Part shown: positions 6,363 through 36,342 of the stretch, piece after piece
Numbering within the stretch: the stretch's first letter is position 1
How the letters are laid out: the number at the start of each line of letters is the position of its first letter
Origin: Pseudomonadota bacterium
GTDB taxonomy: Bacteria > UBA10199 > 2-02-FULL-44-16 > JAAZCA01
Direction of reading: 5' to 3'
Length of the DNA: 64,000 bases
NCBI GenBank assembly: GCA_043798915.1
Contig: JAZDOG010000068.1
Location: 498 to 64,497 of the forward strand
Notes under the pieces: model-generated
Seen by the model: only the letters and a program-made list of their open reading frames with translations
What the model was told of the DNA's origin: nothing
Database searches by the model: none
Made by a program: the position numbers and the translations under genes

Positions 6363-6453
6363 CTCCCCTCCTTTGTAAGGAGGGGGTGGGGGAGGTAGAT
6401 CGTGGTCTATGCTTGATCTACCCTCCCTATCCCTCCCTTACAAAGGGAGGGGG
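6363..6453. repeat. Palindromic repeat element, copy A (intergenic, just upstream of tilS).
   Basis: Read directly: ctcccctcctttgtaaggagggggtgggggaggtagatc-gtggtctatgctt-gatctaccctccctatccctcccttacaaagggaggggg. Two terminal hairpins flank a central palindrome. Confidence 0.8.
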
Positions 6454-6464
6454 TTTGAAAAATC

Positions 6465-7463
6465 ATGCTGTTTCCCAAGTTCAAAAAATTCATGGCGGAT
6501 AACGACCTCATTCGAGAGGGCGATGGCGTCATCGTCGCGGTCTCCGGCGGCATCGACTCTATGGTCCTCCTCGATCTCTTCTGCCGTGTCGCGGGGCCGA
6601 TGAAGCTCTCCCTCAGGGCGGCGCATGTGAACCACATGCTCCGCGACAGGGCATCAGGCGAGGACGAGGCGCTGGTGCGCAAATTCTGCGGCAAGATGGG
6701 CATCCCCTGCGAAGTCCAGAGGCGCAGGCCTCCGGCAGGCAAAAACCTCCAGGATGCGGCCAGGAGAATTCGGTACGATTTTTTTAAAAGCAGCGCAGAA
6801 AAGGGGAGGGCGTTCTCGATAGCCACCGCCCATCATATGGACGATCAGGCGGAGACGATCCTCCTGCACCTGATTCGCGGCGCGGGGCTCGCAGGTCTCG
6901 CCGGCATGAGGCCGAAGGCGCGCATTGGAGCGCTGAAACTGGTGCGACCGCTCCTCTTTGCATCGAGGGCTGAGATCGAGCAATACGCGAAACAGAGACA
7001 CATCGAATACAACGACGATGCCACGAATGCGACAGTGAAATATGCCCGAAATTCGGTGCGCCATCGCCTGATCCCGCTCCTAAAGGAATTCAATCCGCGA
7101 ATAGTCGAAAACATCGCGGCGATAGGCGACAGGGCGGACGCCGACGAAAAGGCCCTGCGGCTGTTTGCTGAGGAATCGCTCGATCAGGCGCTGACCAGAA
7201 ACAGCCGCGATGAGATATGGCTCTCCCGCCAGGCCTGGCTGCCGCTGCCCCAGGCGGTCAGAGGCCGCATGCTTCGCGCCGCCTTCGAGCGCGCGAGCGG
7301 AAGCGCCAAGGATTTGAATGCCGACCAGCTGTTGCGGATGGATTCGATAGCGGCAGGGCCTCGGCCCTCGGGGTCGTATCGCCTCCCCGCGCCCTGGAAA
7401 TTTCATCGCGATGGCGACCTGATCGGAATCACCCGCAGCGCAAAAAAGTGTGACAGAAAGTGA
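6465..7463 (+). CDS. tilS: tRNA(Ile)-lysidine synthetase TilS.
   Basis: The N-terminal PP-loop SGGIDS (VAVSGGIDSMVLLDLF) is present. The 332-aa length fits a short TilS form. Confidence 0.75.
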   Translation: MLFPKFKKFMADNDLIREGDGVIVAVSGGIDSMVLLDLFCRVAGPMKLSLRAAHVNHMLRDRASGEDEALVRKFCGKMGIPCEVQRRRPPAGKNLQDAARRIRYDFFKSSAEKGRAFSIATAHHMDDQAETILLHLIRGAGLAGLAGMRPKARIGALKLVRPLLFASRAEIEQYAKQRHIEYNDDATNATVKYARNSVRHRLIPLLKEFNPRIVENIAAIGDRADADEKALRLFAEESLDQALTRNSRDEIWLSRQAWLPLPQAVRGRMLRAAFERASGSAKDLNADQLLRMDSIAAGPRPSGSYRLPAPWKFHRDGDLIGITRSAKKCDRK

Positions 7464-7508
7464 CAACTCCCTGACAGAAAGCTGGCGGGTTTTTTAGAAA
7501 TTCCCGGC

Positions 7509-7889
7509 TCACAAGTTCGTGGTTTCGAGGGTGGTTATACGAGTCTCATGATCGTCCAAACGGGCTGCGTGGCCATCTATTTTGGCTGAAAGCCGGCCTT
7601 CCATCTCGTGCATTTCGGTGCGGAGATCCTTTATCTCCCCGCTATGCTTTGTCACTGCAAATTCTACTGCCTCAAGTCTTCGAGAAAGCCGTTGTTCGGA
7701 GGAATCGATCTTCTCCGTCAACACAACACGCGTGTGCTCTACCCCTTCGATCACCTGCTTCATCCCTGACTTAAGGTCTTCGATCAGCACCGCGTTGTAA
7801 TGCGCAATTGTATCCTCCTTGCCAAGCCTAGCGACTGGCGTCTTGACCGAGGAGGATCGTTTTTGCGAGGCGCGTTTAGTTCGTTTCAT
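7509..7889 (-). CDS. Hypothetical coiled-coil protein (126 aa) in a low-GC island.
   Basis: The ORF has a basic N-terminus and heptad-like LEAVEFAVTKHSGEIKDLRTEMHEMEGRLSAKIDGHAARL. Local GC is ~50%, against ~65% in the flanks. Confidence 0.4.
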   Translation of the reverse strand: MKRTKRASQKRSSSVKTPVARLGKEDTIAHYNAVLIEDLKSGMKQVIEGVEHTRVVLTEKIDSSEQRLSRRLEAVEFAVTKHSGEIKDLRTEMHEMEGRLSAKIDGHAARLDDHETRITTLETTNL

Positions 7890-8012
7890 CTGAATCCCCC
7901 TAACCCGACGCGGGCAGGCTTGTCAATCGCGTTCTCGGAAACGGCCAGGTGAGTTCTAGACCGGTCGACGCCTCATCACCGCCCTCTTGATGTTTATCGC
8001 CGATCTCTGCTC

Positions 8013-8507
8013 TCATTTGCCCGCTCTTTTTGGAGAAGATTCCATAAGTTTGAAATATGCCTTGAGGAACATGACGCCCAAGTTCCTGTGGGGTGGAATA
8101 TAGCTTCGAAACTCATCCATCCCGCCAAACCTGCCTTCGGCTCGCCTCCAGAATTCCGGCCAGTTTATATCTTCTCCCGTAAGAATAGCCTCGTTCAGCA
8201 TCTTAAAGAGGGGGTCGTTTACATTCATGGTCCCCGTTCCCTTTGTCGAAATTATATGGGCCTCAGGGGCCCTCTCAAGCACGGCCGATACATTATTATA
8301 TCCACCGCACGACCCGAGCGACACTATCTTTGCAATGCGCGGGATCCTCCCTATTGTTTCTCCCGCGTGAAAACTGTGTCCCCTGTGAACCACCATGATG
8401 GATTGGATGTTTCTTTTGGAAAAGACCTTCTGTATCTCGTCCGGGCCTTTTTCAACGCCTTCGGATGTCGGCTTGTTGGCGTATATCTCGATTCTTTTGC
8501 CTTTCAA
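8013..8507 (-). CDS. Hypothetical protein, probably a 5'-truncated gene remnant. No ATG is present. The frame stays open upstream into the repeat complex, to a TGA near 8615.
   Basis: The protein-like sequence ...RHQYNGKSGWKTEDHGRYVLIESPSLKGKRIEIYANKPTSEG...HRGHSFHAGE...SLGSCGGY continues upstream of the annotated TTG start and ends inside repeat DNA. The region is low-GC. Confidence 0.35.
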   Translation of the reverse strand: MKGKRIEIYANKPTSEGVEKGPDEIQKVFSKRNIQSIMVVHRGHSFHAGETIGRIPRIAKIVSLGSCGGYNNVSAVLERAPEAHIISTKGTGTMNVNDPLFKMLNEAILTGEDINWPEFWRRAEGRFGGMDEFRSYIPPHRNLGVMFLKAYFKLMESSPKRAGK

Positions 8508-8584
8508 AGAAGGGGACTCGATCAGGACGTACCTGCCATGATCCTCTGTCTTCCACCCGCTTTTGCCGTTATACTGGTGCCTCT

Positions 8585-8842
8585 TTTCCCTCTCCCCTCG
8601 TGCCTGCCCGCCGACGGTTCAGTGGCGGGGGAGAGGGTCAGGGTGAGGGGGAAGATCGCACGGATTCCAATATCCCCCTCCCTCCGACTCCCTCCCACAA
8701 GGAGGGTGTTTCCGAAGTGTCATTCCCGCATGATGTAAGCGGGAATCCCCATCAGAAGTTCATGGGGTTCCCGATTTAAGCACTCGGGAATGACAAAATA
8801 GAGGCCTACTGTTACTTCGGAAACACCCTCGCAAGGGGAGGG
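8585..8842. repeat. Composite or degenerate repeat complex related to the palindromic element family.
   Basis: Segment 8585-8687 has cctctcccctcg...cgggggagagggtcagggtgagggggaagatc, which resembles copy B. Segment 8690-8842 has the shape ccctcccacaaggaggg-[internal inverted repeat]-ccctcgcaaggggaggg. The internal inverted repeat reads gtgtttccgaagtgtcattcccg ... cgggaatgaca..acttcggaaacac. Confidence 0.6.
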
Positions 8843-8960
8843 AGAATTTCTAAAGGCACCATACTGAAATAGTTGCGAACCTAAAGTGCTATAAAGGGGT
8901 TGCTTAACCCTGTTTTCTCCGCTATTTTCCCCCGACTCGATAATTTCAAGGAGCCTTCAC

Positions 8961-10895
8961 ATGCCAATACAGAAGAAGGGACCCAGCGGTTTGAAAGGGG
9001 CCCACAAGACGGTTGCCCTCTGGCTCATGATCATCATCATGGTGATGCTCGTGATGCACCTCATGAACCAGCCTGTGCAGAAGGATGAGAAGGTCAATTT
9101 CTCCGACTTCCTCTCCGCCGTGTCCGCCAACGGGATCGAGTCGGTCAGCATCCAGGAGGATGAGTATCGCGGCAAGTTCAAGCCCGACTACAAAAACGGC
9201 GCGCGCTTCGAGACGATCGGCCCCGAGGGGAGCGAGAAGGCCCTGGAGAAGCTCGCGGCCACGGATGCCAAAGTCGAGTATCTGAAGAAGAAGGAGACGC
9301 CGTTCTGGCAGTCGATCCTGATTTCGTGGCTCCCCATGCTCCTGCTCTTCGGGTTTTTCTTCTTCTCCATGAGGCAGATCCAGGTTGGCGGCGGCAAGGC
9401 GATGAGCTTCGGGCGCAGCAAGGCCAAACTAATAGCCGACAGCCAGCGCAAGGTCACCTTCGCCGACGTCGCCGGCATCGAGGAGGCCAAGGACGAGCTG
9501 CGCGAGATCATCGCCTTTCTGCGCGAGCCCAAGAAATTCACGATGCTCGGCGGCCGGATCCCGAAGGGCGTGCTCCTCATGGGGCCCCCGGGATCGGGCA
9601 AGACGCTGCTGGCCCGCGCGGTCGCCGGCGAGGCTGGCGTTCCGTTCTTCTCGATCTCCGGCTCCGATTTCGTCGAGATGTTCGTGGGCGTAGGCGCCGC
9701 ACGCGTGCGCGACCTCTTCGAGCAGGGCAAGAAGAACGCCCCCTGCATCGTCTTCATAGACGAGATCGACGCCGTCGGCCGCCACCGCGGCGCCGGGCTG
9801 GGCGGCGGCCACGACGAGCGCGAGCAGACGCTCAATCAGCTGCTCGTCGAGATGGACGGCTTTGAATCCAATGAAGGCGTCATCATCATGGCGGCGACGA
9901 ACCGACCGGATGTCCTCGATCCGGCGCTTTTGCGCCCCGGCCGCTTCGACAGGCGCGTCGTGGTCCCGAAACCAGACGTCGCCGGGCGGGAGGCTATCCT
10001 CAAGGTCCATTCTACCAACAAGCCGCTCGCGGCCGACGTCATCCTGGGGGTGATCGCCCGCGGGACGCCCGGCTTTTCAGGCGCGGATCTCGAGAGCGTG
10101 GTCAACGAGGCTGCCTTGCTTGCGGCGCGCATCGGCAAAAAACTCATCGAGATGAGCGACTTCGAACTCGCCAAGGACAAGGTCCTCATGGGCTCGGAGC
10201 GCAAGAGCATGATCATCTCGGAGGATGAGAAGAAGAATACGGCGTTCCACGAGGCGGGGCACACGCTTGTAGCAAAACTCACGCCCGGAACGGATCCGAT
10301 CCACAAGGTGACGATCATCCCGCGCGGCATGGCATTGGGGCTTACGCAACAGCTCCCGACCGACGACCGCTATACCCAGAATCGCGTGTTTTGCGAGAAC
10401 TCGCTTTCGATACTCCTTGGCGGTCGCGCCGCTGAGGAGCTCATTTTTCAGCAGCCCACCACCGGCGCCGGCAATGACATCGAGCGGGCCAGCGAACTCG
10501 CGAGAAAAATGGTCTGCGAGTGGGGGATGAGCGACAAGCTTGGGCCGCTCTCGTTCGGCAAAAAAGGCCAGGAGATATTCCTGGGCCGTGAGATCTCGCA
10601 GCACGCGGACTACAGCGAGGACACTGCCCGCGAGATAGACTCCGAGATAAAGAGGTTCGTGATGGAGGGCTACGGGCGGGCCAAAAAGATACTGGCCGAC
10701 AACCGCGACACGCTCACGCGCCTCGCCGAGGCGCTTCTCGAGCACGAATCTCTCTCGAACGATCAGATAGAGAAGATCATGCGTGGCGAAGAACTTGGTC
10801 CGCGCGTGATCTCCGCCGACGAAGCGGCTATTTCGGCTGAGCGCGCGGCAAAAGCCCAGCCATCTTCCACGAAGACCGCGCTTGAAACTGCATGA
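8961..10895 (+). CDS. ftsH: ATP-dependent zinc metalloprotease FtsH.
   Basis: Present are N-terminal TMs, AAA Walker [24 protein letters not shown], the SRH and the HEAGH zinc motif (FHEAGHTL). Confidence 0.95.
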
Positions 10896-15283: not shown

Positions 15284-16834
15284 ATGAAACTTGTGACTTC
15301 AAAACAAATGCGCGGGCTCGATCGCGCCGCCATTGAAAAGCATGGGATCGCCTCGCTCGATCTCATGGAGCGCGCGGGCCGGGGCGTGGCGAAAGCTGTA
15401 GCCAGCCTCACGCCGCCGGAGAAAGGGACGGTCGCTATCATCGCCGGCCGCGGCAACAACGGCGGCGACGGGCTCGTTGCAGCGCGACATCTGATCTCGA
15501 TGGGATACGAAGTCGCCGTTTGGCTTCTGGCGGGGCCCTCCGACCTCTCGCCGGACGCCCGCGCGAACTGGGAGTTGCTCGCCCCGCTCACGACGCATCT
15601 GTTCACAATCGCGGATATCGCCGAATTCAATTCCAGATTGCCCCTCATCGAGCGATCGTGCCTGATCGTCGATGCGATCCTCGGCACCGGTCTCGACCGC
15701 GACGTCGCAGGGCTTCCTGCGGCCGCTATCGCAGCGATCAACGCCGCCGGCATTCCGGTCGTGTCGGTCGATATTCCGTCCGGGCTTTCGGCGGATACCG
15801 GAAAACCGCTTGGCGCCGCAGTCCGCGCCGCTGCGACGGTGACCTTCGGCCTGCCGAAGATGGGCCTTGTGGTCGGCGATGGGCCTGTTTTTTCGGGCTC
15901 AATCAAAGTCGTGGATATCGGGATACCGGGTGAGGAGACTGATCGCGTCGAATCTCTGATCGAGCTGATCGAGCCTTCGATGTTCGCGTCCCATTTCGGA
16001 AAGCGCGATCCCTCCGCGCACAAGGGGGCGTTCGGACACGTCGTGGTCTACTCAGGATCGCTGGGGCATCTTGGCGCGGGATATCTCGGGTGCCTGGCGG
16101 CGCTGCGCGCTGGATGCGGGCTCGTCACGTATTGCCTGCCGGAGAAGGCGTTCGTCCGGTTCGATGCGCGCTATCCGGAGGTTATGTGCGATCCGATTGC
16201 GGATGATGCCTCGGCGCATTTTCACCCCAAGGGTCTCGATGCCGCGCTTCGCGTTGCCGATGGAAAGTCGGTTGCGGCGATCGGCCCGGCGATCGGCACA
16301 GAAAAGTCGACGCGCGAATTTGTGAATTCATTCATCGGCAGGATTAAAATTCCGCTCGTCATAGATGCGGATGGACTCAACGTGCTCGATCTCTCTTCCC
16401 TCAGGGGACGCCGCGCGGCCACGATCCTCACCCCGCACCCCGGCGAGATGGGGAGGCTGTCAAAGGCCGCAACTGAGGATGTTCAGGCCGACAGAGTGGG
16501 GCACGCCACCCGTTTCGCAAAGGAACACGGCGTGACGCTCGTCCTCAAGGGGCGCGGGACTGTCGTCGCGAGCCCCGACGGGAGCGCCGCAATAAATCAT
16601 ACGGGCAATGCCGGGATGGCGACGGCTGGGATGGGGGACGCCCTCACTGGCATCGTTGCATCGTTTATCGCGCAGGGGATGGATGTGAAGACGGCCTGTG
16701 TCGCCGCCGTCTACATCCACGGCCTGGCCGGCGACATGGCCGCCGCCGAACACGGCGAGCGCGCGCTGATCACCTCGGATGTGATAGGCAAGCTGGGAAA
16801 GGCGATGAAAAAGATTTCCCCCTCCCCTTTGTAA
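15284..16834 (+). CDS. nnr: Bifunctional NAD(P)H-hydrate repair enzyme Nnr (YjeF_N epimerase plus C-terminal dehydratase).
   Basis: Present are the N-domain IAGRGNNGGDG and the C-domain carbohydrate-kinase fold. The last 6 codons and the TAA stop are supplied by repeat copy B. Confidence 0.85.
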   Translation: MKLVTSKQMRGLDRAAIEKHGIASLDLMERAGRGVAKAVASLTPPEKGTVAIIAGRGNNGGDGLVAARHLISMGYEVAVWLLAGPSDLSPDARANWELLAPLTTHLFTIADIAEFNSRLPLIERSCLIVDAILGTGLDRDVAGLPAAAIAAINAAGIPVVSVDIPSGLSADTGKPLGAAVRAAATVTFGLPKMGLVVGDGPVFSGSIKVVDIGIPGEETDRVESLIELIEPSMFASHFGKRDPSAHKGAFGHVVVYSGSLGHLGAGYLGCLAALRAGCGLVTYCLPEKAFVRFDARYPEVMCDPIADDASAHFHPKGLDAALRVADGKSVAAIGPAIGTEKSTREFVNSFIGRIKIPLVIDADGLNVLDLSSLRGRRAATILTPHPGEMGRLSKAATEDVQADRVGHATRFAKEHGVTLVLKGRGTVVASPDGSAAINHTGNAGMATAGMGDALTGIVASFIAQGMDVKTACVAAVYIHGLAGDMAAAEHGERALITSDVIGKLGKAMKKISPSPL

Positions 16835-16910
16835 GGGGAGGGTCAGGGTGGGGTAGATAGCTGATTCAGTGCTGATCTACCTCCCCCAGCCCCTCCTTAC
16901 AAAGGAGGGG
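16817..16910. repeat. Palindromic repeat element, copy B. It overlaps the 3' end of nnr and the RBS/start region of tsaE.
   Basis: Read directly: cccctcccctttgtaaggggagggtcagggtggggtagatagctgattcagtgctgatctacctcccccagcccctccttacaaaggaggggag. Confidence 0.8.
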
Positions 16911-16933
16911 AGTTGTGCAATCATCGATATAAC

Positions 16934-20023: not shown

Positions 20024-20146
20024 GATTGGCGGGAAATTTGGCGCTTTTTTTCGGTCATTATCAAAATGGTAATTCGTCTTCAACTGCAGCATGTTAAATA
20101 TATAACAAATTCAAGTCGTTAGACGTGTAGTATTTTTTGTTCCCAT

Positions 20147-20162
20147 TGGCACGGGGCTTGCA
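20147..20162 (+). promoter_or_regulatory. sigma54 (-24/-12) promoter upstream of the giant adhesin gene.
   Basis: The sequence TGGCACggggcTTGCA is an exact fit to the TGGCACG-N4-TTGCA consensus spacing. An AT-rich upstream region (20030-20140) could bend DNA for an enhancer-binding protein. The predicted TSS near 20174 is 30 nt before the ATG. Confidence 0.55.
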
Positions 20163-20203
20163 GATTTCCTTATATCGTAGGGGGACTTCATGTGGAGGAT
20201 CTT

Positions 20204-23200
20204 ATGAAGAAACTGTCAGCAGTGATCTCAGCCATCGTGTTGGGATTCGTGGCCTTCGGGGCAGCGGGCAGCGCGCAGGCCGGCTCGCAGTTTTCGCCTC
20301 CGATACCGATGAGATCCGATGTGGGCTCGCATGGTCAGCTGGCCCAGTCGCCCGACACAAAGGTGGACGCGACGAACTTGAAGTTTTTCGAGCATCCAAA
20401 GTATCCGCATCCTGCGCTGGGCGGCAATTACAGCGTCCCAAGCGTGCTTATAAACGGTACCGTCTATCCGATAAGTGACCTCGTTGCCACGCCAGGCCTT
20501 TTGCCCCCGGACAGCAGAAAGTTTGACATAAAGAGTGAGATGCTGGACGCATACGGTCCCCGTCCGGGAGGGTCCCTGGACCCGCTGCATGGTTTTTGCA
20601 CGGGCCCCGTCGGAAATAATGCTTACGAGGATTGTGAGGTGAAAGGTATTGTTAACCCCGTCGGGGTCTTCAGCAGCGTCGATGTCAGCAGGCAACTTCA
20701 GGTGGCTGATATACGCGACGCCCTGCAAAACGAGATGGGCCTCCTCAAAGAACAGGACCCGCTCATCGAGGCGCTCATCGGCAGCTCACATGAAAGCAAG
20801 CTGCCTTATGATGTTCAGACCTATCCGGCGACGGTGATAACAAAGTCTGGATATCTGGATGGGGTCATCGCATATGGGATCGCCGACTTCGATGCGGGCG
20901 TGGTCACAGCCACCTATGATCCGCTGATGCTGTCGATCTCGATGCAGGATGTAGGCAATATAGTATCGCCTGTAAAAGATATCCTCAACCAGCTATACAT
21001 TTCGCCTCTCGCTTTCTTCCGCAAGGACGCAGTCGCGGGAAGGATGAGGCTGGCGGGGTACTCCGGGATGCTCCTGTTCGATCCAAAACAGCTTCCGGCG
21101 AATCCGCTTGAAGTGATGGAACGCCTCCTGTTGTTGCCATCGTCCAATCCGGTCTCTGTGGCCAGCATGCCTGTAGCTGTGAGTTTTTCCGGTGCTGCAG
21201 GATCGGGCGCCTTCAAAACCATACCGGGTTTTGCCGTCGTCAATCAGGCGACGGTCGTCGATTTGGATATGCCGGTCAAGGTGGCGGGACACTCGTACGC
21301 CGATCCCTCAGACTTTCAGACACACAACTGGGGGGATTATCTCGTCCATCAAAATGGCAGCCCGATCACTTCGGCAGAGATGCCTCACCGATTGTTCTCT
21401 TATGCCTCGTTCTGGGGTCAGGGCAGGAAATGGGGTGGTGGCGATCCGACACAACCGGCGGACATGGACAATTTCAATCCCAATGCGGTTTTCACACCCA
21501 AGGTCTTTGCCATGATAGGCCGCGGCGCGTTCGATGCTGCAATGGCGGTGGACACCAAGAGCGGCACAAAATACTCGCTCGTCGTTCCATCGGGCGAGGT
21601 GGCGGAAAACAACACATTCTACCTTTATAAAGTATTTCCATATCCGACGAGCGCCAATCAGGTCTATATCAGGACAACTGTGGCCGATGCCAATCCAACG
21701 CCAATGGGGATGATCATACCGACTCCATATGAGATCGAAGTGCCCCCTGGATTCGCGCCATACGGCATCGCATCGGCCGATATCGACGGCGACGGCTGCG
21801 CCGACTTCGCCGTCACATTCCGCGGTGCCACGACGGTCGCTTTGAAAACACCGTTCAATAACCAAAAAGGCGAGAACGTCGTCTTTCAAAATCCGGCGGA
21901 CCAGACGACAATGTTCAGCAATTATGTCTACATATATAAAGGAGACCCGAATAAAAACTGCGCCATAAGCCCAGCACCGTCGATAAAACAACTGGTCGGG
22001 CCGAAGGGCGTTCAGATTGCTGCCGTTGCCCTCGCGGATATAGACGGAGATAACAAAGTTGACTTGCTCGTCGGCGACCTGATTCCGCGTCAGATCCCGG
22101 ATGGAAAGGACAAAGATAAATACACCGCATATGCCTATCTGTTCTCTTATATCGACGACCCGAACTCGTTACATGATCCGTTTAGTTATCAATCGATCCG
22201 CGTCGGTTTTAACAATTTTGACAACGCGGTGGGGCCGATTTCTGCCGCCGATCTCCTGGATATCGCGAGAGGTGCGGCCACAGGCAAAACTATAGGCGTG
22301 GCGGCCCTTGCGGTGGACAGGCAACAGGATGGATCGAATATAGGCGCGATCAACGGACTGCCGCTGGCCCTGCCGCCGTTTGGCTGTCCCTCCTTGCCCA
22401 GCAATATTGAAGTGAAGAGCGGCCTGGAAGAACTCATCGGCACCGAGCATTGCGGGACAGTTGTGTTGCCGCGCGTTGCGCGCGGGCAGATCATGCCCGG
22501 GCCCCGGGAGATGACCGTGGTGGTGAAGATGGGTGCCAGTGCCCCACCGGGCCCCATATGGACCATCCAGCAGCCAATCTATCGGAAGGTCTGCCCGGCT
22601 GGCTCTGACTGCACTAGTGATGCAGAGTGTTCGGCAAACAAGCCAGTTGGCGGGCCGTGGGTGTGCGCAAATTGCACGTGTCAGTGCAGTCTCACTCAAG
22701 CGTCCTGTCCGCCAGGTCCAGATGAGGTGCTTGATAAAGACAAATGCATATGCACCATACGACCTCCCTTAAGTGGAGGCGGCAAGTGCAATTACAACGG
22801 CAGCGTCGATCTGCCCGGTGAAAAATGCGACACGGCGGGGCTTCCAAAGGACAAATCGGATGCCCAGCTGGCGCAGAAGTGCACAAACCCGCCGCCCGGC
22901 GGAGTGCCAGATGCGTGCGATATGAAGGATTGCACCTGTTCATACAAGCAGCTGGCTTGTGCCAATCAGCTGCTGCCGCTGGCGCCGGGCAAGTGCCAAG
23001 CCGACGGCGACTGCAATAAGGCTGCCGGCGAGAGATGTCTCGTCGATTGCAGCTGTGGAGTCATCACTCCAGCCGTTCCTCCAAGCGCAGGCGCTCCTGG
23101 CGGCGAGACGGGCACCGCATGGATTCCATCCGAGAGCGATTGCACCGCCCAGGTCTTGAGCTGGACGAGCAACGATGCACACGACAAGATGGAAGCGCTC

Positions 23201-24205
23201 AACGATGCCATAGCCAAGGTAACCCTCAAACCCAATTATCAGCTGCTCGTCGAGAACGAGCAGCGAATCCGAATCATCTGCAAGGTCGGCAACGCCTCCA
23301 TGCCGGGAGCGACGAAACAGAGCCTTTCGCTCTCCGTCATCGGCGATCCTCTCCCTGATTCAGCAGACATGATACGTCCATACGCCTTGGTGCAGACCGG
23401 CGGTTCGGTATTCTTGAATTTCTATGATAAGACCAAAATGGAGTACAATATGGTCAAGCCAGTCGAGACGGCGATCAGGATCATGCCGCTGCCTTCGACC
23501 ACGGCCCAGAAGGGGATCACCGCAGGCAAGGCGGACGTCATCCTGCCGTTGCTGACGGGGGATCTTGCGGCCACGGTCCCGATGACGGATATTGTCTCAG
23601 ACATGCCCGTTGCCGTGTCCAGCGATGCCGAAATGATAAATGATATGATCCGGCATCAGATGGTGGCGCTTGGCACCGGCCAGTCCCTCTCACTCAGCGC
23701 GGATGGCATAACCTTCCAGAAGGCGCAGGCTGTCCCCGTCCAGAGCGACAGTCCGCAGTTCGTCCTCCATATAACCACGGTGTCAGCGCCGGCCGACTGC
23801 GCCTCGTTTGCCGGCGTTGAGGGCTACACAGGCTGTCCCCACATAGAGGAACAGAACCTCAATCTCGAAGCGCTCAAGGCTGCGCTGGCCAGCCGCGTCA
23901 CGTCAGGTCAGGAACCGAATGCGAGCATCTTCTCCGGCCTGCCTTGGGAACCCTACCGCAACAACCAGTTCACGCTCGTCCAGGACGTCTATGCCAAGGC
24001 GAACAGCATCGGGGCACTTGCTCCAATACAGCAGAAGTTCGCCTTCCTCACAGTCAACCCGAACTATGCGGGGCAGGGCGGATGCAAGGGCTGCTTTGTG
24101 AGCGGAGCAGTGGCTGATCTCGATTCCGTCCTGCCGACGCTCATCGCCGTCCTCTTCACCGTCGGAGGGATCGCGGCAGGCAGGGTGAGGCGCGGCAGGA
24201 AGTGA
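20204..24205 (+). CDS. Giant secreted, adhesin-like protein with a signal peptide, FG-GAP repeats, a Cys-rich EGF-like module and a C-terminal sorting tail.
   Basis: The signal peptide reads MKKLSAVISAIVLGFVAFGAAGSAQA. FG-GAP-like DxDGDG motifs occur at ASADIDGDGCADFAV and ALADIDGDNKVDLLVGD. About 40 Cys fall within ~180 aa (CTCQC, CICT, CTCSY). The C-terminus reads GGCKGCFVSGAV...LPTLIAVLFTVGGIAAGRVRRGRK*, resembling MYXO-CTERM or exosortase-type tags. Confidence 0.8.
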   Translation: MKKLSAVISAIVLGFVAFGAAGSAQAGSQFSPPIPMRSDVGSHGQLAQSPDTKVDATNLKFFEHPKYPHPALGGNYSVPSVLINGTVYPISDLVATPGLLPPDSRKFDIKSEMLDAYGPRPGGSLDPLHGFCTGPVGNNAYEDCEVKGIVNPVGVFSSVDVSRQLQVADIRDALQNEMGLLKEQDPLIEALIGSSHESKLPYDVQTYPATVITKSGYLDGVIAYGIADFDAGVVTATYDPLMLSISMQDVGNIVSPVKDILNQLYISPLAFFRKDAVAGRMRLAGYSGMLLFDPKQLPANPLEVMERLLLLPSSNPVSVASMPVAVSFSGAAGSGAFKTIPGFAVVNQATVVDLDMPVKVAGHSYADPSDFQTHNWGDYLVHQNGSPITSAEMPHRLFSYASFWGQGRKWGGGDPTQPADMDNFNPNAVFTPKVFAMIGRGAFDAAMAVDTKSGTKYSLVVPSGEVAENNTFYLYKVFPYPTSANQVYIRTTVADANPTPMGMIIPTPYEIEVPPGFAPYGIASADIDGDGCADFAVTFRGATTVALKTPFNNQKGENVVFQNPADQTTMFSNYVYIYKGDPNKNCAISPAPSIKQLVGPKGVQIAAVALADIDGDNKVDLLVGDLIPRQIPDGKDKDKYTAYAYLFSYIDDPNSLHDPFSYQSIRVGFNNFDNAVGPISAADLLDIARGAATGKTIGVAALAVDRQQDGSNIGAINGLPLALPPFGCPSLPSNIEVKSGLEELIGTEHCGTVVLPRVARGQIMPGPREMTVVVKMGASAPPGPIWTIQQPIYRKVCPAGSDCTSDAECSANKPVGGPWVCANCTCQCSLTQASCPPGPDEVLDKDKCICTIRPPLSGGGKCNYNGSVDLPGEKCDTAGLPKDKSDAQLAQKCTNPPPGGVPDACDMKDCTCSYKQLACANQLLPLAPGKCQADGDCNKAAGERCLVDCSCGVITPAVPPSAGAPGGETGTAWIPSESDCTAQVLSWTSNDAHDKMEALNDAIAKVTLKPNYQLLVENEQRIRIICKVGNASMPGATKQSLSLSVIGDPLPDSADMIRPYALVQTGGSVFLNFYDKTKMEYNMVKPVETAIRIMPLPSTTAQKGITAGKADVILPLLTGDLAATVPMTDIVSDMPVAVSSDAEMINDMIRHQMVALGTGQSLSLSADGITFQKAQAVPVQSDSPQFVLHITTVSAPADCASFAGVEGYTGCPHIEEQNLNLEALKAALASRVTSGQEPNASIFSGLPWEPYRNNQFTLVQDVYAKANSIGALAPIQQKFAFLTVNPNYAGQGGCKGCFVSGAVADLDSVLPTLIAVLFTVGGIAAGRVRRGRK

Positions 24206-28597: not shown

Positions 28598-29539
28598 GTG
28601 AACGGACGATCGACAGATAGCTCCAGGAGGAGGCTTCCTGAATGGCTCAAGAAACGGGCTGTTCCGGGTGAAGCTATCCACGCGATCAAGCGCGGCCTGC
28701 GCGACAGTGCGCTCCACACCGTCTGCGAAGAGGCCCGCTGTCCCAACCTCGGCGAATGTTTCTCACGCGGCACCGCGACGATGATGATCATGGGCGATAC
28801 CTGCACTCGCCGCTGCGGCTTCTGTGCGGTGAAGGGCGGCGTTCCTGGGCCGCTCGATGCCGGAGAGCCCTCGCGCGTGGCCCTGCAGGTCAAGGTGATG
28901 AAACTCAAGCATGCCGTGGTAACCTCCGTCACGCGCGACGACCTCCCGGATGGCGGCGGCGCGCATTTTGCGCAGACGATAGCCGAGATAAGAAGGCTCT
29001 GCCCCGAAATCACGATCGAGGTCCTGACGCCCGACTTCTGCGGCAGCGAAGAGGCGATAGGGACGGTCTGCAGCGCAGCTCCGGATATATTCAACCACAA
29101 CATCGAGACGGTCGAGCGGCTGACGCCCGTCGTGCGCGATCGCAGGGCAAGTTATCGACGGTCGCTTGATGTATTGAGGATAGCAGCCAAAACCCTCCCC
29201 TTTGTAAGGGGAGGGAAGGGTGGGGTAGATCATGATCTACCTCCCCTAACCCCTCCTTACAAAGGAGGGGGACTAATCAAGTCAGGGCTGATGGTGGGCC
29301 TGGGCGAGACCTGCAATGAAGTGGCCGGCGCCCTCCTGGACCTCAAAGAAGCGGGCTGCGACATCGTGACGATCGGCCAATACCTGCGCCCATCGAAGGA
29401 TGCGCTGCCGGTGGTCAGCTATGTTGAACCTTCGACCTTCGAAAAGTATAGAGAAAATGCTTTAAATATCGGATTTAAGACTGTGTTTTCAGGCCCTTTT
29501 ATTCGTAGTTCATATCTGGCCGATAAGGCGCTACTTTAA
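28598..29539 (+). CDS. lipA: Lipoyl synthase.
   Basis: Sequence shows LHTVCEEARCPNLGEC, then CTRRCGFCAV (radical SAM), then ...SGLMVGLGET. It carries a 27-codon in-frame insertion from repeat copy C. GTG start. Confidence 0.9.
   Translation: MNGRSTDSSRRRLPEWLKKRAVPGEAIHAIKRGLRDSALHTVCEEARCPNLGECFSRGTATMMIMGDTCTRRCGFCAVKGGVPGPLDAGEPSRVALQVKVMKLKHAVVTSVTRDDLPDGGGAHFAQTIAEIRRLCPEITIEVLTPDFCGSEEAIGTVCSAAPDIFNHNIETVERLTPVVRDRRASYRRSLDVLRIAAKTLPFVRGGKGGVDHDLPPLTPPYKGGGLIKSGLMVGLGETCNEVAGALLDLKEAGCDIVTIGQYLRPSKDALPVVSYVEPSTFEKYRENALNIGFKTVFSGPFIRSSYLADKALL
29193..29271. repeat. Palindromic repeat element, copy C, inserted in frame inside lipA.
   Basis: Read directly: ccctcccctttgtaaggggagggaagggtggggtagatcatgatctacctcccctaacccctccttacaaaggaggggg. 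It is translated as TLPFVRGGKGGVDHDLPPLTPPYKGGG. Confidence 0.85.
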
Positions 29540-31902: not shown

Positions 31903-33785
31903 TGTGCGGCATCTGCGGAATAATCCACGATGAACCGGCGCGCCCCGTCGAGAGGAATCTCCTCGAGGCGATGAACCGGACCATGATCCACCGCGGGCCA
32001 GACGATGAGGGATACTTCGTCGGCCGCGGCTCGGGGCTTGGCGTGCGCAGGCTATCGATCATGGACGTCCAGGGCGGCCACCAGCCCATGTCCTCTGAGG
32101 ACGGCAAGGTCTACGCCGTCTGCAACGGAGAGATATATAACTTCAGGGAACTTCGCAGCGAGCTCGAGGGCAGGGGGCACGTCTTCCGTTCGTGCTCCGA
32201 CTCGGAGGTCCTTCCGCACCTGTATGAGGAGAGCGGCGCGGATCTGCCGCAGAGATTGAACGGTATGTTCGGACTCGCCGTGTGGGATGAACCGGAGCGC
32301 ACCCTCATCCTCGCCCGCGATCGGATGGGCGAAAAGCCGCTCTACTGGACGCACCAGCACGGAATCTTTGCATTCGGCTCCGAGCTCAAGGCGATCATCG
32401 TGCATCCGGAAATCAATCCGTCGGTCGACCGCAGTTCGCTCTCGAAATACCTGGCCTTCGAGTACATCCCCGCGCCGCACACGATCTTCGAGGGCATCAA
32501 CAAGCTCGAACCGGGCCACCTCCTGATCCTTAGGAAAAACCAGGTCACGGTGCGCTCATACTGGGACGTCCCGACGGGCAGGGAAATAGGCGGCGTCTCG
32601 GAGAAGGACGCGGCCAGGGAAATATTGCGGCTCCTCGAACAATCCGTGCAGAGGCGGCTCATGAGCGATGTGCCGCTGGGCGTCTTCCTCTCCGGCGGGG
32701 TCGATTCATCCTCGATCGTGGCGATGATGTCGAAGCTTCGGGATCCCAGGGATATCAAGACCTTTTCGATCGCCTTCGAGGAGGTGTCGTTTGACGAGTC
32801 GTCGCATGCGAAGAGGGTGGCCGCGCATTTCGGGACGGACCATCGGGAGAAACTCTTCACCTCCGCCGAATTGATCAAGCTCCTGCCCGAGGTCACGGCC
32901 TTCTTGGACGAGCCGCTCGGCGACGCTTCCATATTGCCCACATACGCCCTTTCGAAATTCACGCGGCAGAGCGTGACGGTGGCCCTCTCCGGCGACGGCG
33001 GCGACGAGCTCTTCGCCGGCTACCCCACGTTCCAGGCCGAGAAGTGCATGCGCGCCTACAGGGCGCTGCCCGCGTTTTTGAGGGAGCGGGTCATTGAGCC
33101 CGTGATGCGGGCGCTGCCGGTCTCCGATGCGAACATGAGCTTCGATTTCAAGCTCAAGCAGTTCATCAAGGGCGCCAACGTCGACAATCCGGAGCGCCTG
33201 TTCATATGGATATGCTCTTTCTCGCCGGAGGAACAGCAGCGGCTTCTGGCGCACGATCTGCCGGAGGGGATGCTCTCCGATATCCAGCGCCATGCGGCCG
33301 CCGCGCGCGATGCCTCCGGCGGCAACAGGATCCTCTACCTATACAAGAAGCTCTATCTTGCCGAGGACCTGCTGACGAAGATCGACAGGGCCTCGATGGG
33401 CGCCTCCCTCGAGGCGCGCGCGCCGTTCCTCGACCACGATCTCGTCGAATTCGTCGCGCGCCTGCCCTATGAGATGAAGCTCCACGGCTTCACGACCAAA
33501 TACATACTCAAGAAGGCGATGAGGCCGCTCTTGCCGAAGGGGATCGCCTCTCGGCCCAAAAAGGGATTCGGCATACCGGTCGCTCAGTGGGTCAAGGGGC
33601 CGCTGAAGGAGATGTTCCAGGACCTCTTCGAGGCGGGTCGCATCAGGAGTGAAGGTTTCTTCCGCCCGGGTGAAATATCCCGGCTCCTCCGCGATCACAT
33701 GGACGGCCGGGCGGACAACCGCAAGAAACTCTGGACCCTCTTCATGTTCGAGCAGTGGCTCCAGCGGTTTGGGATCAAGTCTTAA
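31902..33785 (+). CDS. asnB: Asparagine synthase (glutamine-hydrolysing).
   Basis: Present are the N-terminal nucleophile MCGI, the GATase-2 domain and the SGGVDSS PP-loop. Confidence 0.9.
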
Positions 33786-33843
33786 GAACGCTTTAAATAT
33801 TAAGAGATTGACAGCTTGCCAACCCGATTGTAATTCCAGCGAC

Positions 33844-36342
33844 ATGCCTGAACGACACTACAACCCTGCCGAAATCGAATCCAAGTGGCAGAAGCACTGG
33901 GAGAAGAAGGGGCTCTTCAAGGTGAAGGAGGTCCCAGGGCAGAAGAAGTATTACCTCCTCGAGATGCTCCCGTACCCCTCCGGGCGGCTTCACATGGGGC
34001 ACGTGCGCAACTACACGATAGGCGACGTCGCGACGCGCTGCCGCATGATGCAGGGCTTCAAGGTGCTGCACCCAATGGGCTGGGATGCCTTCGGCATGCC
34101 CGCCGAGAACGCCGCGATCAAGGAGGGCGTCCACCCCGCCAAGTGGACGAAGTCGAACATCGATTACATGCGCGGGCAGTTCAAGCGCCTCGGATGCTCC
34201 TATGACTGGGAGCGCGAATTCGCCACGTGCGACCCCGATTACTACCGATGGGACCAGCTGATATTCGTGCGGATGTTCGAGAAGGGATGGGCCTACAAGA
34301 AGAGCTCCCAGATCAACTGGTGCCCGACATGCCAGACGGTGCTGGCCAACGAGCAGGCCGAGGGAGGCGTCTGCTGGCGCTGCGACTCGGGGGTGGTGGG
34401 CAAACCGATGTCGCAATGGTTCTTCAGGATCACCGATTACGCCGAGGAGCTCCTCCGCGACATCGACGAAAAGCTCACGGGCTGGCCGGAGCGCGTCCGC
34501 ATCATGCAGCGCGAGTGGATCGGAAAGAGCGTGGGCGCCTTGATCAGATTTCCCCTCCTTTGTAAGGAGGGGAAAGGGGAGGTAGACCATGATCTACCCC
34601 ACCCTAACCCTCCCCTTACAAAGGGGAGGGAATTTATCGAGGTCTTCACGACGCGCCCGGACACGATCTTCGGCGTCACCTTCATGAGCATCGCGTGCGA
34701 GCACCCGCTCGTTAAGGAATTCGTGAAAGGGACCGGCCAGGAGAGGGCGGTCGCGGCGTTTGCCGAGAAGAGCTCCCACATCGACCACGAGGCCAGGCTC
34801 GCAAACACATATGAGAAGGACGGCGTCTTCACCGGCGCATATTGCATAAACCCGATGACGGGCGCGCGCGTGCCGATCTACGCCGCCAACTTCGTCCTCA
34901 TGGACTACGGCACGGGTGCTGTGATGGCGGTGCCGGCGCACGACCAGCGCGATTTTGAATTCGCGAAAAAATACAAGCTCCCTGTCAAGGTCGTGATCCA
35001 GCCGGAAGGGGAGAAGCTCGATGCAAGAGCGATGGCTGAAGCCTGGGAGGGACCGGGGACGCTCGTCGATTCGGGCGAGTTCACCGGAATGAACAGCGAG
35101 GCCGCGATCCGCGCCATCTCGGAGCACTTTGCGAAGAAAAAGATCGGCGGGCCGGCGGTCACGTATCGTCTGAAGGACTGGTGCATCTCGCGTCAGCGCT
35201 ACTGGGGCGCACCCATCCCCATCATCTATTGCGACTCATGCGGGACAGTGCCTGTCCCGGATAAGGACCTGCCCGTTGTCCTTCCTCATGACGTGGAGTT
35301 CACCGGCGAGGGCGGCTCGCCGATAGCCAAACTCGAGTCATTCGTGGACACCAAATGCCCCAGGTGCAAGGGAAAGGCGCGGCGCGAGACCGACACGATG
35401 GACACGTTCGTCGAGTCGTCGTGGTACATGCTGCGCTATGCATGCCCCAAATACGACAAGGGGCCTGTCGATCCGAAGATGATCGAGTACTGGCTTCCGG
35501 TCGATCAGTACATCGGCGGGATCGAACATGCCGTCGGGCATCTCATCTACTGCCGCTATTTCACCAAGGTGATGCGCGACTTGGGGATGCTCAAGCTCGA
35601 CGAGCCGGTGAAGAACCTGATGACGCAGGGGATGGTCTACAAGGACGGCGCCAAGATGAGCAAGTCGAAGGGGAACGTCGTCGACCCTGACGACATGATC
35701 GCCAAGTTCGGCGCCGACACCGTGAGGCTCTTTTCGCTCTTCGCCGCGCCGCCTGAGAAAGACCTCGAGTGGAGCGAGCGAGGGGTGGAAGGGGCGCACC
35801 GCTTCCTCATCCGCGTATGGCGCATCGTCTCGGCGTGGAAAGAGGGAGGAGGCGGAAAGGGTGCAAAGGCGACAGAAGATATCGGGCAGTGGCGAAACCG
35901 CACGATCCAGCGCGTCACCGAGGATGTAGACCGTTACCATTTCAACACCGCGATCGCTGCGGTGATGGAGTACGTCAACTTCCTCTACGGCCTCAAGGTG
36001 CAGGATATCCCTGCGGAGGCGATCGAGACGCTCATACTCCTCGTCTCCCCGTTTGCGCCGCACGCGGCGGAGGAACTCTGGGAGCTCTTGGGGCATTCGA
36101 AGTCGACCCTCCACGAGCCGTGGCCGGCGTTCGATCCTGCGAAGGCGCAGGGCTACACGGTGACCTACATCGTGCAGGTTGGCGGCAAGATGCGAGACAA
36201 GCTCGATCTCCCCATCGATATGCCCGAGGAGGACGTGAAGGCCGCGGCCCTAGCCTCGGCGAAAGTTGCTGCGCATCTCGAAGGCAAGGCGCCCCAAAAG
36301 GTGATCTTCGTCCCGAAGAGGCTCGTGAATATTGTGGTGTGA
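33844..36342 (+). CDS. leuS: Leucyl-tRNA synthetase.
   Basis: Present are [12 protein letters not shown] (start of the CP1 editing domain) and KMSKS. It carries a ~27-codon in-frame insertion from repeat copy D just before VFTTRPDT. Confidence 0.95.
34551..34629. repeat. Palindromic repeat element, copy D, inserted in frame inside leuS.
   Basis: Read directly: cccctcctttgtaaggaggggaaaggggaggtagaccatgatctaccccaccctaaccctccccttacaaaggggaggg. It is translated as [26 protein letters not shown]. Confidence 0.85.

Follow-up and report, generated by a model that had tools for sequence, protein, structure and literature searches.

The DNA analyzed here is 64 kb of a metagenome-assembled contig of a Pseudomonadota bacterium (the window, to which all coordinates refer), and the element in question is a structured block of about 260 bp that lies between the remnant of an uncharacterized gene and ftsH. 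The block is best described as a mosaic of two nonautonomous, hairpin-forming DNA repeats at the breakpoint of a truncated gene, and not as an RNA gene, a reading to which we assign a probability of roughly 75%. The nested hairpins are present on the sequence level, the core of the block is a member of a widely distributed family of inverted hairpin doublets, the neighboring gene breaks off at the edge of the repeats, and relatives with the same gene order have none of this DNA. For annotation, the intergenic block of 260 bp belongs as repeat DNA and not as a candidate riboswitch or small RNA (sRNA), and the open reading frame (ORF) of 164 aa next to it belongs as a gene remnant.

Architecture and repeat content of the block

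A preliminary description of this DNA had reported a block of nested hairpins of about 260 bp, and all features quoted in it are found in the sequence (Table 1). RNA folding of 8580-8860 yields -144.2 kcal/mol on the plus strand (z -7.75) and -152.3 kcal/mol on the minus strand (z -9.64), and none of 200 shuffled sequences folds as well. The equal strength on the two strands is expected of a DNA palindrome. The block can be divided into two parts that share the hairpin H2. When folded as single-stranded DNA (ssDNA), part 2 alone reaches a z of -10.7, part 1 only -2.9. In part 1, the hairpin H1 is directly followed by GAGGGTCAGGGTGAGGGGGAAGATC. In part 2, an outer stem with an 18-nt unpaired bulge (8796-8813) encloses the doublet core. 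A repeat finder recovers the same organization as 31-nt arms at 8688-8718/8814-8844 (84% complementary) and nested 32-nt arms at 8718-8749/8764-8795 (78% complementary). The hairpin H3 with its flanks (8823-8842) is complementary to the H2 region and is also a 75% direct repeat of 8687-8706.

The core of part 2 (8718-8795) consists of two hairpins, TGTCATTCCCG...CGGGAATGACA, that are inverted relative to each other. When prokaryotic genomes, one for each species, are scanned with the pattern TGTCATTCCCG-N40-70-CGGGAATGACA, at least 120 loci are identified, all with the layout hairpin, spacer, inverted hairpin. They are distributed over candidate phyla radiation (CPR) bacteria, Bacteroidota, Alpha-, Beta-, Gamma-, and “Delta”-proteobacteria, Chloroflexota, Planctomycetota, Omnitrophota, and others, and many of them are located at contig ends. 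The typical doublet of other genomes is composed of TGTCATTCCCGC-GAAA-GCGGGAATCCAG, a spacer of 15 to 35 nt, and the inverted unit. In a plasmid collection, blastn finds no match to 8700-8830 of the window. A hidden Markov model (HMM) built from 129 doublets matches the window at 8717-8797 with an E-value of 2e-11 (nhmmer), which places the block's core in this family. The partner arm, which was not preset by the search pattern, is carried by 227 of 260 half-elements. The base pair beside CCCG/CGGG is C-G in 189 cases, A-T in 20, T-A in 15, and non-Watson-Crick in 3, and these substitutions are compensatory; the right hairpin in the window has the A-T variant. Most loops measure 4 nt (190 cases), and both hairpins in the window belong to a minor class of 19 cases with loops of 9 nt.

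Hairpins of this kind have been described in Neisseria. The Neisseria transformation sequence (NTS) is defined as CGTCATTCCCGCGMAVGCGGGAATCYRG and contains the dRS3 sequence ATTCCC-N8-GGGAAT, whereas the Ssn-related motif (SRM) is a degenerate pattern; small GIY-YIG proteins of the Ssn type (cd10448) bind and cut the hairpin only as ssDNA, and SRMs flank ssn genes across phyla (Nat Commun 2025, PMC11893778). In another study, ATTCCCGCGCAGGCGGGAATC is treated as a repetitive extragenic palindromic (REP) sequence of Neisseria, whose inverted doublets (REPINs) go with a Group 2 REP-associated tyrosine transposase (RAYT) (bioRxiv 10.1101/2021.07.10.451892). The doublet in the window corresponds to the published NTS/SRM hairpin, that is, the dRS3/REPIN sequence of Neisseria and target of Ssn. 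The SRM regular expression matches the left unit (8718-8750, plus strand), and the right unit is off by one position. In agreement with PMC11893778, genes for GIY-YIG proteins of 97 aa (PF01541, E 3e-13) are located 45 to 68 bp from doublets in Desulfosarcina widdelii (L058) and in a metagenome-assembled genome (MAG) of the Rickettsiales (L020). Part 2 is built as an inverted doublet of NTS/SRM type (TGTCATTCCCGC-loop-GCGGGAATCC) in its own 15-bp outer stem, lodged between G-rich hairpins. Going by what has been published on such hairpins, they would act as folded ssDNA and be recognized by an Ssn nuclease, a RAYT transposase, or both, the genes for which would be located outside the window.

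A rival explanation, which we regard as improbable, assigns the doublet a function: it would be kept by the host as an Ssn target, as NTS is in Neisseria, and would mark the DNA beside it for cleavage of single strands that enter the cell or are being replicated, and so shape recombination near ftsH. The match to the SRM motif, the intact hairpin stems, and the association between Ssn and SRM, as published (PMC11893778) and as seen again in the two genomes above, speak for such a role. The 64 kb, however, hold one copy and no ssn gene, the organism gives no evidence of natural competence, the right unit misses the pattern by one position, and acceptance by Ssn of 9-nt loops in place of the usual 4 nt would have to be presumed.

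Two further observations concern the doublet family in other genomes. Tandem arrays of three SRM-doublet units are found in an Acidobacteriaceae MAG (L032:6860-7488, period of about 272 bp) and at L095:7340-7845 (about 210 bp). The doublets of one genome have the spacer in common, and also the inverted repeats that flank them, such as ACCCTCCCATTT...AAATGGGAGGGT (L005, L009, L038, L084, in Candidatus Hatepunaea meridiana, and loci of other genomes). The universal hairpin pair therefore forms the core of longer, genome-specific families that resemble miniature inverted-repeat transposable elements.

The second repeat is a G-rich palindromic element of about 80 to 95 bp, of which the window contains four clean copies (6363-6453, 16819-16912, 29192-29272, and 34550-34631). 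It is composed of a terminal hairpin (CCCCTCC-TTTGTAA-GGAGGGG), inner arms (GGGGAGGTAGATC/GATCTACCCCACC), and a variable center. A scan of JGI metagenomes for the hairpin finds the element in at least 120 loci (L121-L240), with centers of 0 to about 80 nt. The covariance model (CM) R1, which was built from alignment A3 of 26 metagenome copies and is independent of the window, scores the four clean copies with 73 to 92 bits (E 1e-16 to 1e-21). Part 1 shares an exact 13-mer (GAGGGTCAGGGTG) and the order of the modules with the copy at 16819-16912. It departs from the family in the H1 loop, which has 30 nt instead of TTTGTAA, and in its eroded arms. With moderate confidence, part 1 can be taken as a putative degenerate member of the G-rich family.

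The halves of the G-rich element are asymmetric, with a CCCCTCC hairpin and GGGGAGGTAGA on one side and a CCTCCCC hairpin and GGTGGGGTAGA on the other. Each copy therefore has an orientation, and R1 scores one strand 3 to 10 bits higher. The element is mostly intergenic in metagenomes, where a long open frame spans 1 of 34 copies. Two of the copies in the window sit in frame in intact genes. The copy at 29192-29272 adds LPFVRGGKGGVDHDLPPLTPPYKGGG to LipA (lipA, 28598-29539, plus strand), and residues 197-222 of this LipA are without counterpart in the LipA structure 5exi of the PDB. The copy at 34550-34631 adds 28 residues to LeuS (leuS, 33649-36342, plus strand) in a variable loop ahead of the conserved VFTTRPDT. 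In L240, a syntenic relative with about 65 to 70% nucleotide identity over glmM and a yjeF-like gene, a G-rich element (about 2680-2767) is located at the junction downstream of the yjeF-like gene, which is the place of the copy 16819-16912 in the window; this shared position suggests an old insertion or a hotspot. A full-text literature search with the hairpin sequences (the variants and a shorter core) returned no papers.

Several results weigh against the mosaic reading. The arm sequence of the doublet is unique in the window, with a single doublet in 64 kb, and 22 of the bases common to it and the at least 120 loci were preset by the search pattern. The strict NTS pattern has no match in the window (loop of 9 nt, T in first position), nor has the strict dRS3 pattern, in place of which ATTCCC-N13-GGGAAT is found at 8722-8746. 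The SRM regular expression (HGTCWYN(0-2)YYVSBRHN(0-5)WNVSBRGN(0-2)RNCYNB) has two matches in the window against 0.65 expected by chance per 64 kb, which is weak evidence alone; the HMM match is much the stronger evidence. The other match (23536-23567, plus strand, CGTCATCCTGCCGTTGCTGACGGGGGATCTTG) falls inside a large ORF (20123-24205) and is at chance level. A GIY-YIG homolog is absent from the window (tblastn, E > 0.3). Its ORF list, which is of housekeeping type only, shows no obvious transposase when inspected without a dedicated RAYT search. For part 1, whose likeness to the copy at 16819-16912 the preliminary description had pointed out, the shared 13-mer and module order make the likeness real, but it is weak: part 1 (8605-8710, minus strand) is the next-best match of R1 after the clean copies, with 17.8 bits and an E-value of about 0.007 against a background of 0.04 to 0.07, and nhmmer gives an E-value of 0.2. 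For part 2, the hairpins, the internal inverted repeat, and the inner hairpins of the same description are present, but the family match of the G-rich ends is not significant (R1, E 2.5). A G-rich hairpin is found within 60 nt of none of 131 doublets, and 1 of 34 G-rich elements has a doublet inside. Finally, that the repeats caused the truncation of the gene is something we infer, and the block may be transcribed.

The doublet is bracketed by the G-rich hairpins H2 and H3, and a metagenome locus (L214:6521-6668) with an SRM-like doublet in the center of a complete G-rich element provides a precedent for nesting. Because the combination is so rare, the block is best read as one repeat nested in or beside another. 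A composite as regular architecture was considered and rejected on the same counts. As a highly speculative extension, the two repeat families could be linked: the center or terminal hairpin of the G-rich element could be a preferred landing site of SRM doublets, and the composites of the block and L214 would then represent an undescribed two-tier, hairpin-in-hairpin mobile unit, whose G-rich carrier also settles in frame in lipA and leuS; we consider this very unlikely.

Table 1 Features of the repeat block and its surroundings (coordinates of the window)
Feature	Position	Strand	Sequence or remarks
tilS	6465-7463	+	
Lower-GC island between tilS and ftsH	7464-8584		contains the coiled-coil ORF and the truncated gene
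Small coiled-coil ORF	7509-7889	-	
Truncated gene ORF	8013 to ~8582	-	3' remnant, uncharacterized family; no ATG; annotated TTG start 8507
Repeat block	8585-8845		
Part 1	8588-8706	-	H1 (8588-8637), imperfect arms 8629-8652/8673-8696, H2
Hairpin H1	8588-8597 with 8628-8637		CCCTCTCCCC with GGGGAGAGGG; perfect 10-bp stem, 30-nt loop
Part 2	8688-8844		doublet core 8718-8795 inside outer stem; G-rich hairpins at the ends
Hairpin H2	8690-8706		CCCTCCC-ACAA-GGAGGG; doubles as right end of part 1
Part 2 outer stem	8704-8718 with 8814-8828		GGGTGTTTCCGAAGT with ACTTCGGAAACACCC; 15 bp; encloses the doublet; arm sequence unique in the window
Internal inverted repeat	8706-8728 with 8785-8826		GTGTTTCCGAAGTGTCATTCCCG with CGGGAATGACA...ACTTCGGAAACAC
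Doublet left unit	8718-8750	+	TGTCATTCCCGC-ATGATGTAA-GCGGGAATCCCC
Inner hairpin	8722-8746		ATTCCCGC/GCGGGAAT
Doublet central hairpin	8747-8767		CCCCAT/ATGGGG
Doublet right unit	8764-8795	-	GGGGTTCCCGA-TTTAAGCAC-TCGGGAATGACA; read on the minus strand
Inner hairpin	8768-8790		TTCCCGA/TCGGGAA
Hairpin H3	8826-8842		CCCTCGCAAGGGGAGGG; G-rich, terminal hairpin-like sequence
ftsH-proximal region	8900-8960	+	candidate promoter TTGCTT 8900-8905, 17-nt spacer, TATTTT 8923-8928; AAGGAG 8948-8953
ftsH	8961-10895	+	ATG at 8961
folP	from 10892	+	

A truncated gene at the edge of the repeats

The gene to the left of the block is truncated, and the truncation coincides with the edge of the repeats. Its reading frame on the minus strand extends without a stop from 8618 to 8013, contains no ATG, and is closed upstream by a TGA (8621-8619) in the loop of H1, so that an ORF without ATG that runs into the block and stops inside it, as previously noted, is confirmed. 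The frame has 164 annotated and 201 open codons, whereas complete homologs have 293 to 352 aa. In total, 98 homologs were found, of which only the C-terminal part, about 190 residues, can be aligned with the window. The similarity extends upstream of the annotated TTG start at 8507, up to HQYNGK at about 8579, and no Shine-Dalgarno sequence can be read ahead of this TTG. In tblastn, the homologs map to 8576-8025 from residue 128-137 (approximately) onward, while their first 130 or so residues have no match anywhere in the 64 kb. The point at which the homology is lost is no more than about 10 bp from the block's left edge. From these alignments, the gene in the window is a 3' remnant that lacks about 130 N-terminal residues.

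The family to which the gene belongs is uncharacterized, and no Pfam domain is found in the truncated gene. The named homologs all come from Bacteroidota, and the closest ones (57-64% identity) are metagenome proteins. The invariant motifs HRGHS and GSCGG are intact in the remnant; as a speculation, they might form a His/Cys catalytic pair. In the two loci examined for gene context, the homolog is preceded by a partner gene of about 437 aa (L249:2881-4194 and L247:1-1212). These partners, which have 30% identity between them, gave no Pfam matches where scanned and have no counterpart in the window (tblastn).

The preliminary description had suggested that an insertion truncated the 5' end of the gene. 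The truncation is borne out by the homologs; the insertion is not. A simple insertion would have left the 5' half beyond the block, but it is absent there, and the block is directly followed by the upstream region of ftsH. The loss of the 5' part together with the partner gene points instead to a deletion or rearrangement that ended at the repeats, to the arrival of the gene in already truncated form, or to an assembly collapse. Judged by their position only, the repeats most likely lie at the breakpoint where a deletion or rearrangement removed the first 130 or so codons and the partner gene.

The last of these possibilities, in which a short-read assembler jumped between similar repeats and dropped the 5' half and the partner gene, is unlikely in our estimation. 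It would fit with the metagenomic origin of the contig and with the end of the homology within about 10 bp of a repeat edge, and the frequent position of the doublets at contig ends elsewhere shows that such repeats do break assemblies. On the other hand, relatives have the same genes on either side of the island (tilS to the left, ftsH-folP to the right), so that the overall join is sound. In addition, part 1 has diverged from the window's other copies, and a collapse between identical repeats is less probable for this reason.

The GC content is 0.49 to 0.53 over 7500-8580 and 0.58 to 0.68 in both flanks. The best TilS homologs are at most 58% identical to that of the window, and relatives with TilS proteins of 51 to 54% identity keep the order tilS-ftsH-folP-glmM-pdxJ. 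Their spacer between tilS and ftsH measures 65 bp (L241) or 127 bp (L245 and L246). In a further relative, L243, a different extra gene of 441 aa with a PTS-HPr domain (L243:4556-5881) occupies the site, so that foreign DNA has entered here at least twice. Neither G-rich hairpins nor SRM-like motifs are found at the tilS-ftsH site in these four relatives. As their spacers are short and free of the block's sequence, the whole stretch of 1.5 kb between tilS and ftsH is lineage-specific. The island is read as horizontally acquired, and the truncated gene in it as foreign.

The block as a possible RNA or ftsH regulator

The possibility that the core of about 150 nt is a structured sRNA or a cis-acting leader of ftsH, raised as an alternative in the preliminary description, is not supported and is the least probable of the explanations considered here. 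Its appeal comes from the very stable predicted fold and from a precedent in Francisella, where the sRNA FtrB (RF02748) contains the SRM-like hairpin GAGATTCCCGCCTACGCGGGAATGAC and is detected by Northern blot. A weak FtrB match is present in the window at 8703-8819, but it scores 15.5 bits where the gathering score is 66, with an E-value of 8.6. The two strands fold equally well, as those of a DNA palindrome do. Rfam returns no match at gathering thresholds in the whole window, and canonical doublets taken from 18 loci elsewhere likewise match no family at threshold. With relaxed settings, 8450-9000 yields only sub-threshold miRNA-like hairpins (14-24 bits) besides the FtrB match. ARAGORN finds no tRNA or tmRNA gene in 8300-9100. 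The same elements are dispersed over unrelated contexts, including the inside of ORFs. The absence of the block from the spacers of 65 to 127 bp in relatives with tilS-ftsH-folP synteny speaks against a conserved leader of ftsH and against a conserved sRNA.

The signals around the block point the same way. Between the end of the block and the ATG of ftsH lie 116 bp, and the sole candidate promoter is located in this interval, downstream of the block. This candidate (TTGCTT-N17-TATTTT) is a weak promoter guessed by eye, and the scan reported no plus-strand promoter there or elsewhere in the flanks. The sole terminator-like site on the plus strand (8896-8911) lies about 50 bp downstream, and such sites are no more common here than in shuffled sequences. 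As far as can be judged from the letters, the block gives no sign of a dedicated RNA.

The published Northern probe for FtrB of Francisella tularensis, GAGATTCCCGCCTACGCGGGAATGACTACCGACG, is itself an NTS/SRM-type hairpin. FtrB may thus be a transcribed copy of the NTS/SRM repeat family and not an invention specific to Francisella. Its SRM-like hairpin shows that such repeats can be transcribed.

Comparison with known repeat systems

The block is ordinary as a class. A modest interest lies in the long-loop SRM doublet among G-rich hairpins and in the G-rich family itself. The closest known system is the NTS/SRM hairpin. The core in the window, TGTCATTCCCGC...GCGGGAATCC, has the 5' GTCAT and 3' CC that orient the motif, forms a hairpin, and matches the SRM in its left unit; its family is spread across phyla and has GIY-YIG neighbors in two loci. 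It differs from most SRM copies in its loops (9 nt versus 4 nt) and in the second unit, which is one base off the SRM pattern, and from the NTS/SRM systems in that the window has a single doublet in its 64 kb and no ssn gene. The NTS/SRM doublet thereby reaches an uncultured lineage, in a long-loop variant, and can nest in another repeat family. FtrB shares the SRM-like hairpin with the block, which at 15.5 bits versus 66 is not a member of that RNA family.

With REPINs, the doublet shares the geometry and a related REP core sequence: two REP-like hairpins (8718-8750 and 8764-8795) are inverted with respect to each other, at a distance of less than 130 bp, and form one long hairpin. Unlike REPINs, it is nested within another repeat, and no RAYT was seen on inspection of the ORF list. 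The bacterial interspersed mosaic elements (BIMEs) of Escherichia coli and the neisserial intergenic mosaic elements (NIMEs) are intergenic clusters in which palindromic units and linkers are mixed in alternating orientation. The block resembles both as an intergenic cluster of this make-up. Its sequences are unrelated to BIME units, it has just two element types, and the composite is rare among the sampled loci.

A different comparison applies to the G-rich family. Rickettsia palindromic elements (RPEs) are short palindromes that essential genes can tolerate as in-frame insertions. The copies in the essential genes lipA and leuS of the window, which sit in frame and leave the genes undestroyed, behave likewise. 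The likeness considered here is one of behavior; the G-rich family is rich in G+C, belongs to a different host lineage, and is mostly intergenic in its metagenome copies (1 of 34 intragenic). This by-product of the analysis may matter more than the block itself, as a possible second, GC-rich case of the RPE-type phenomenon.

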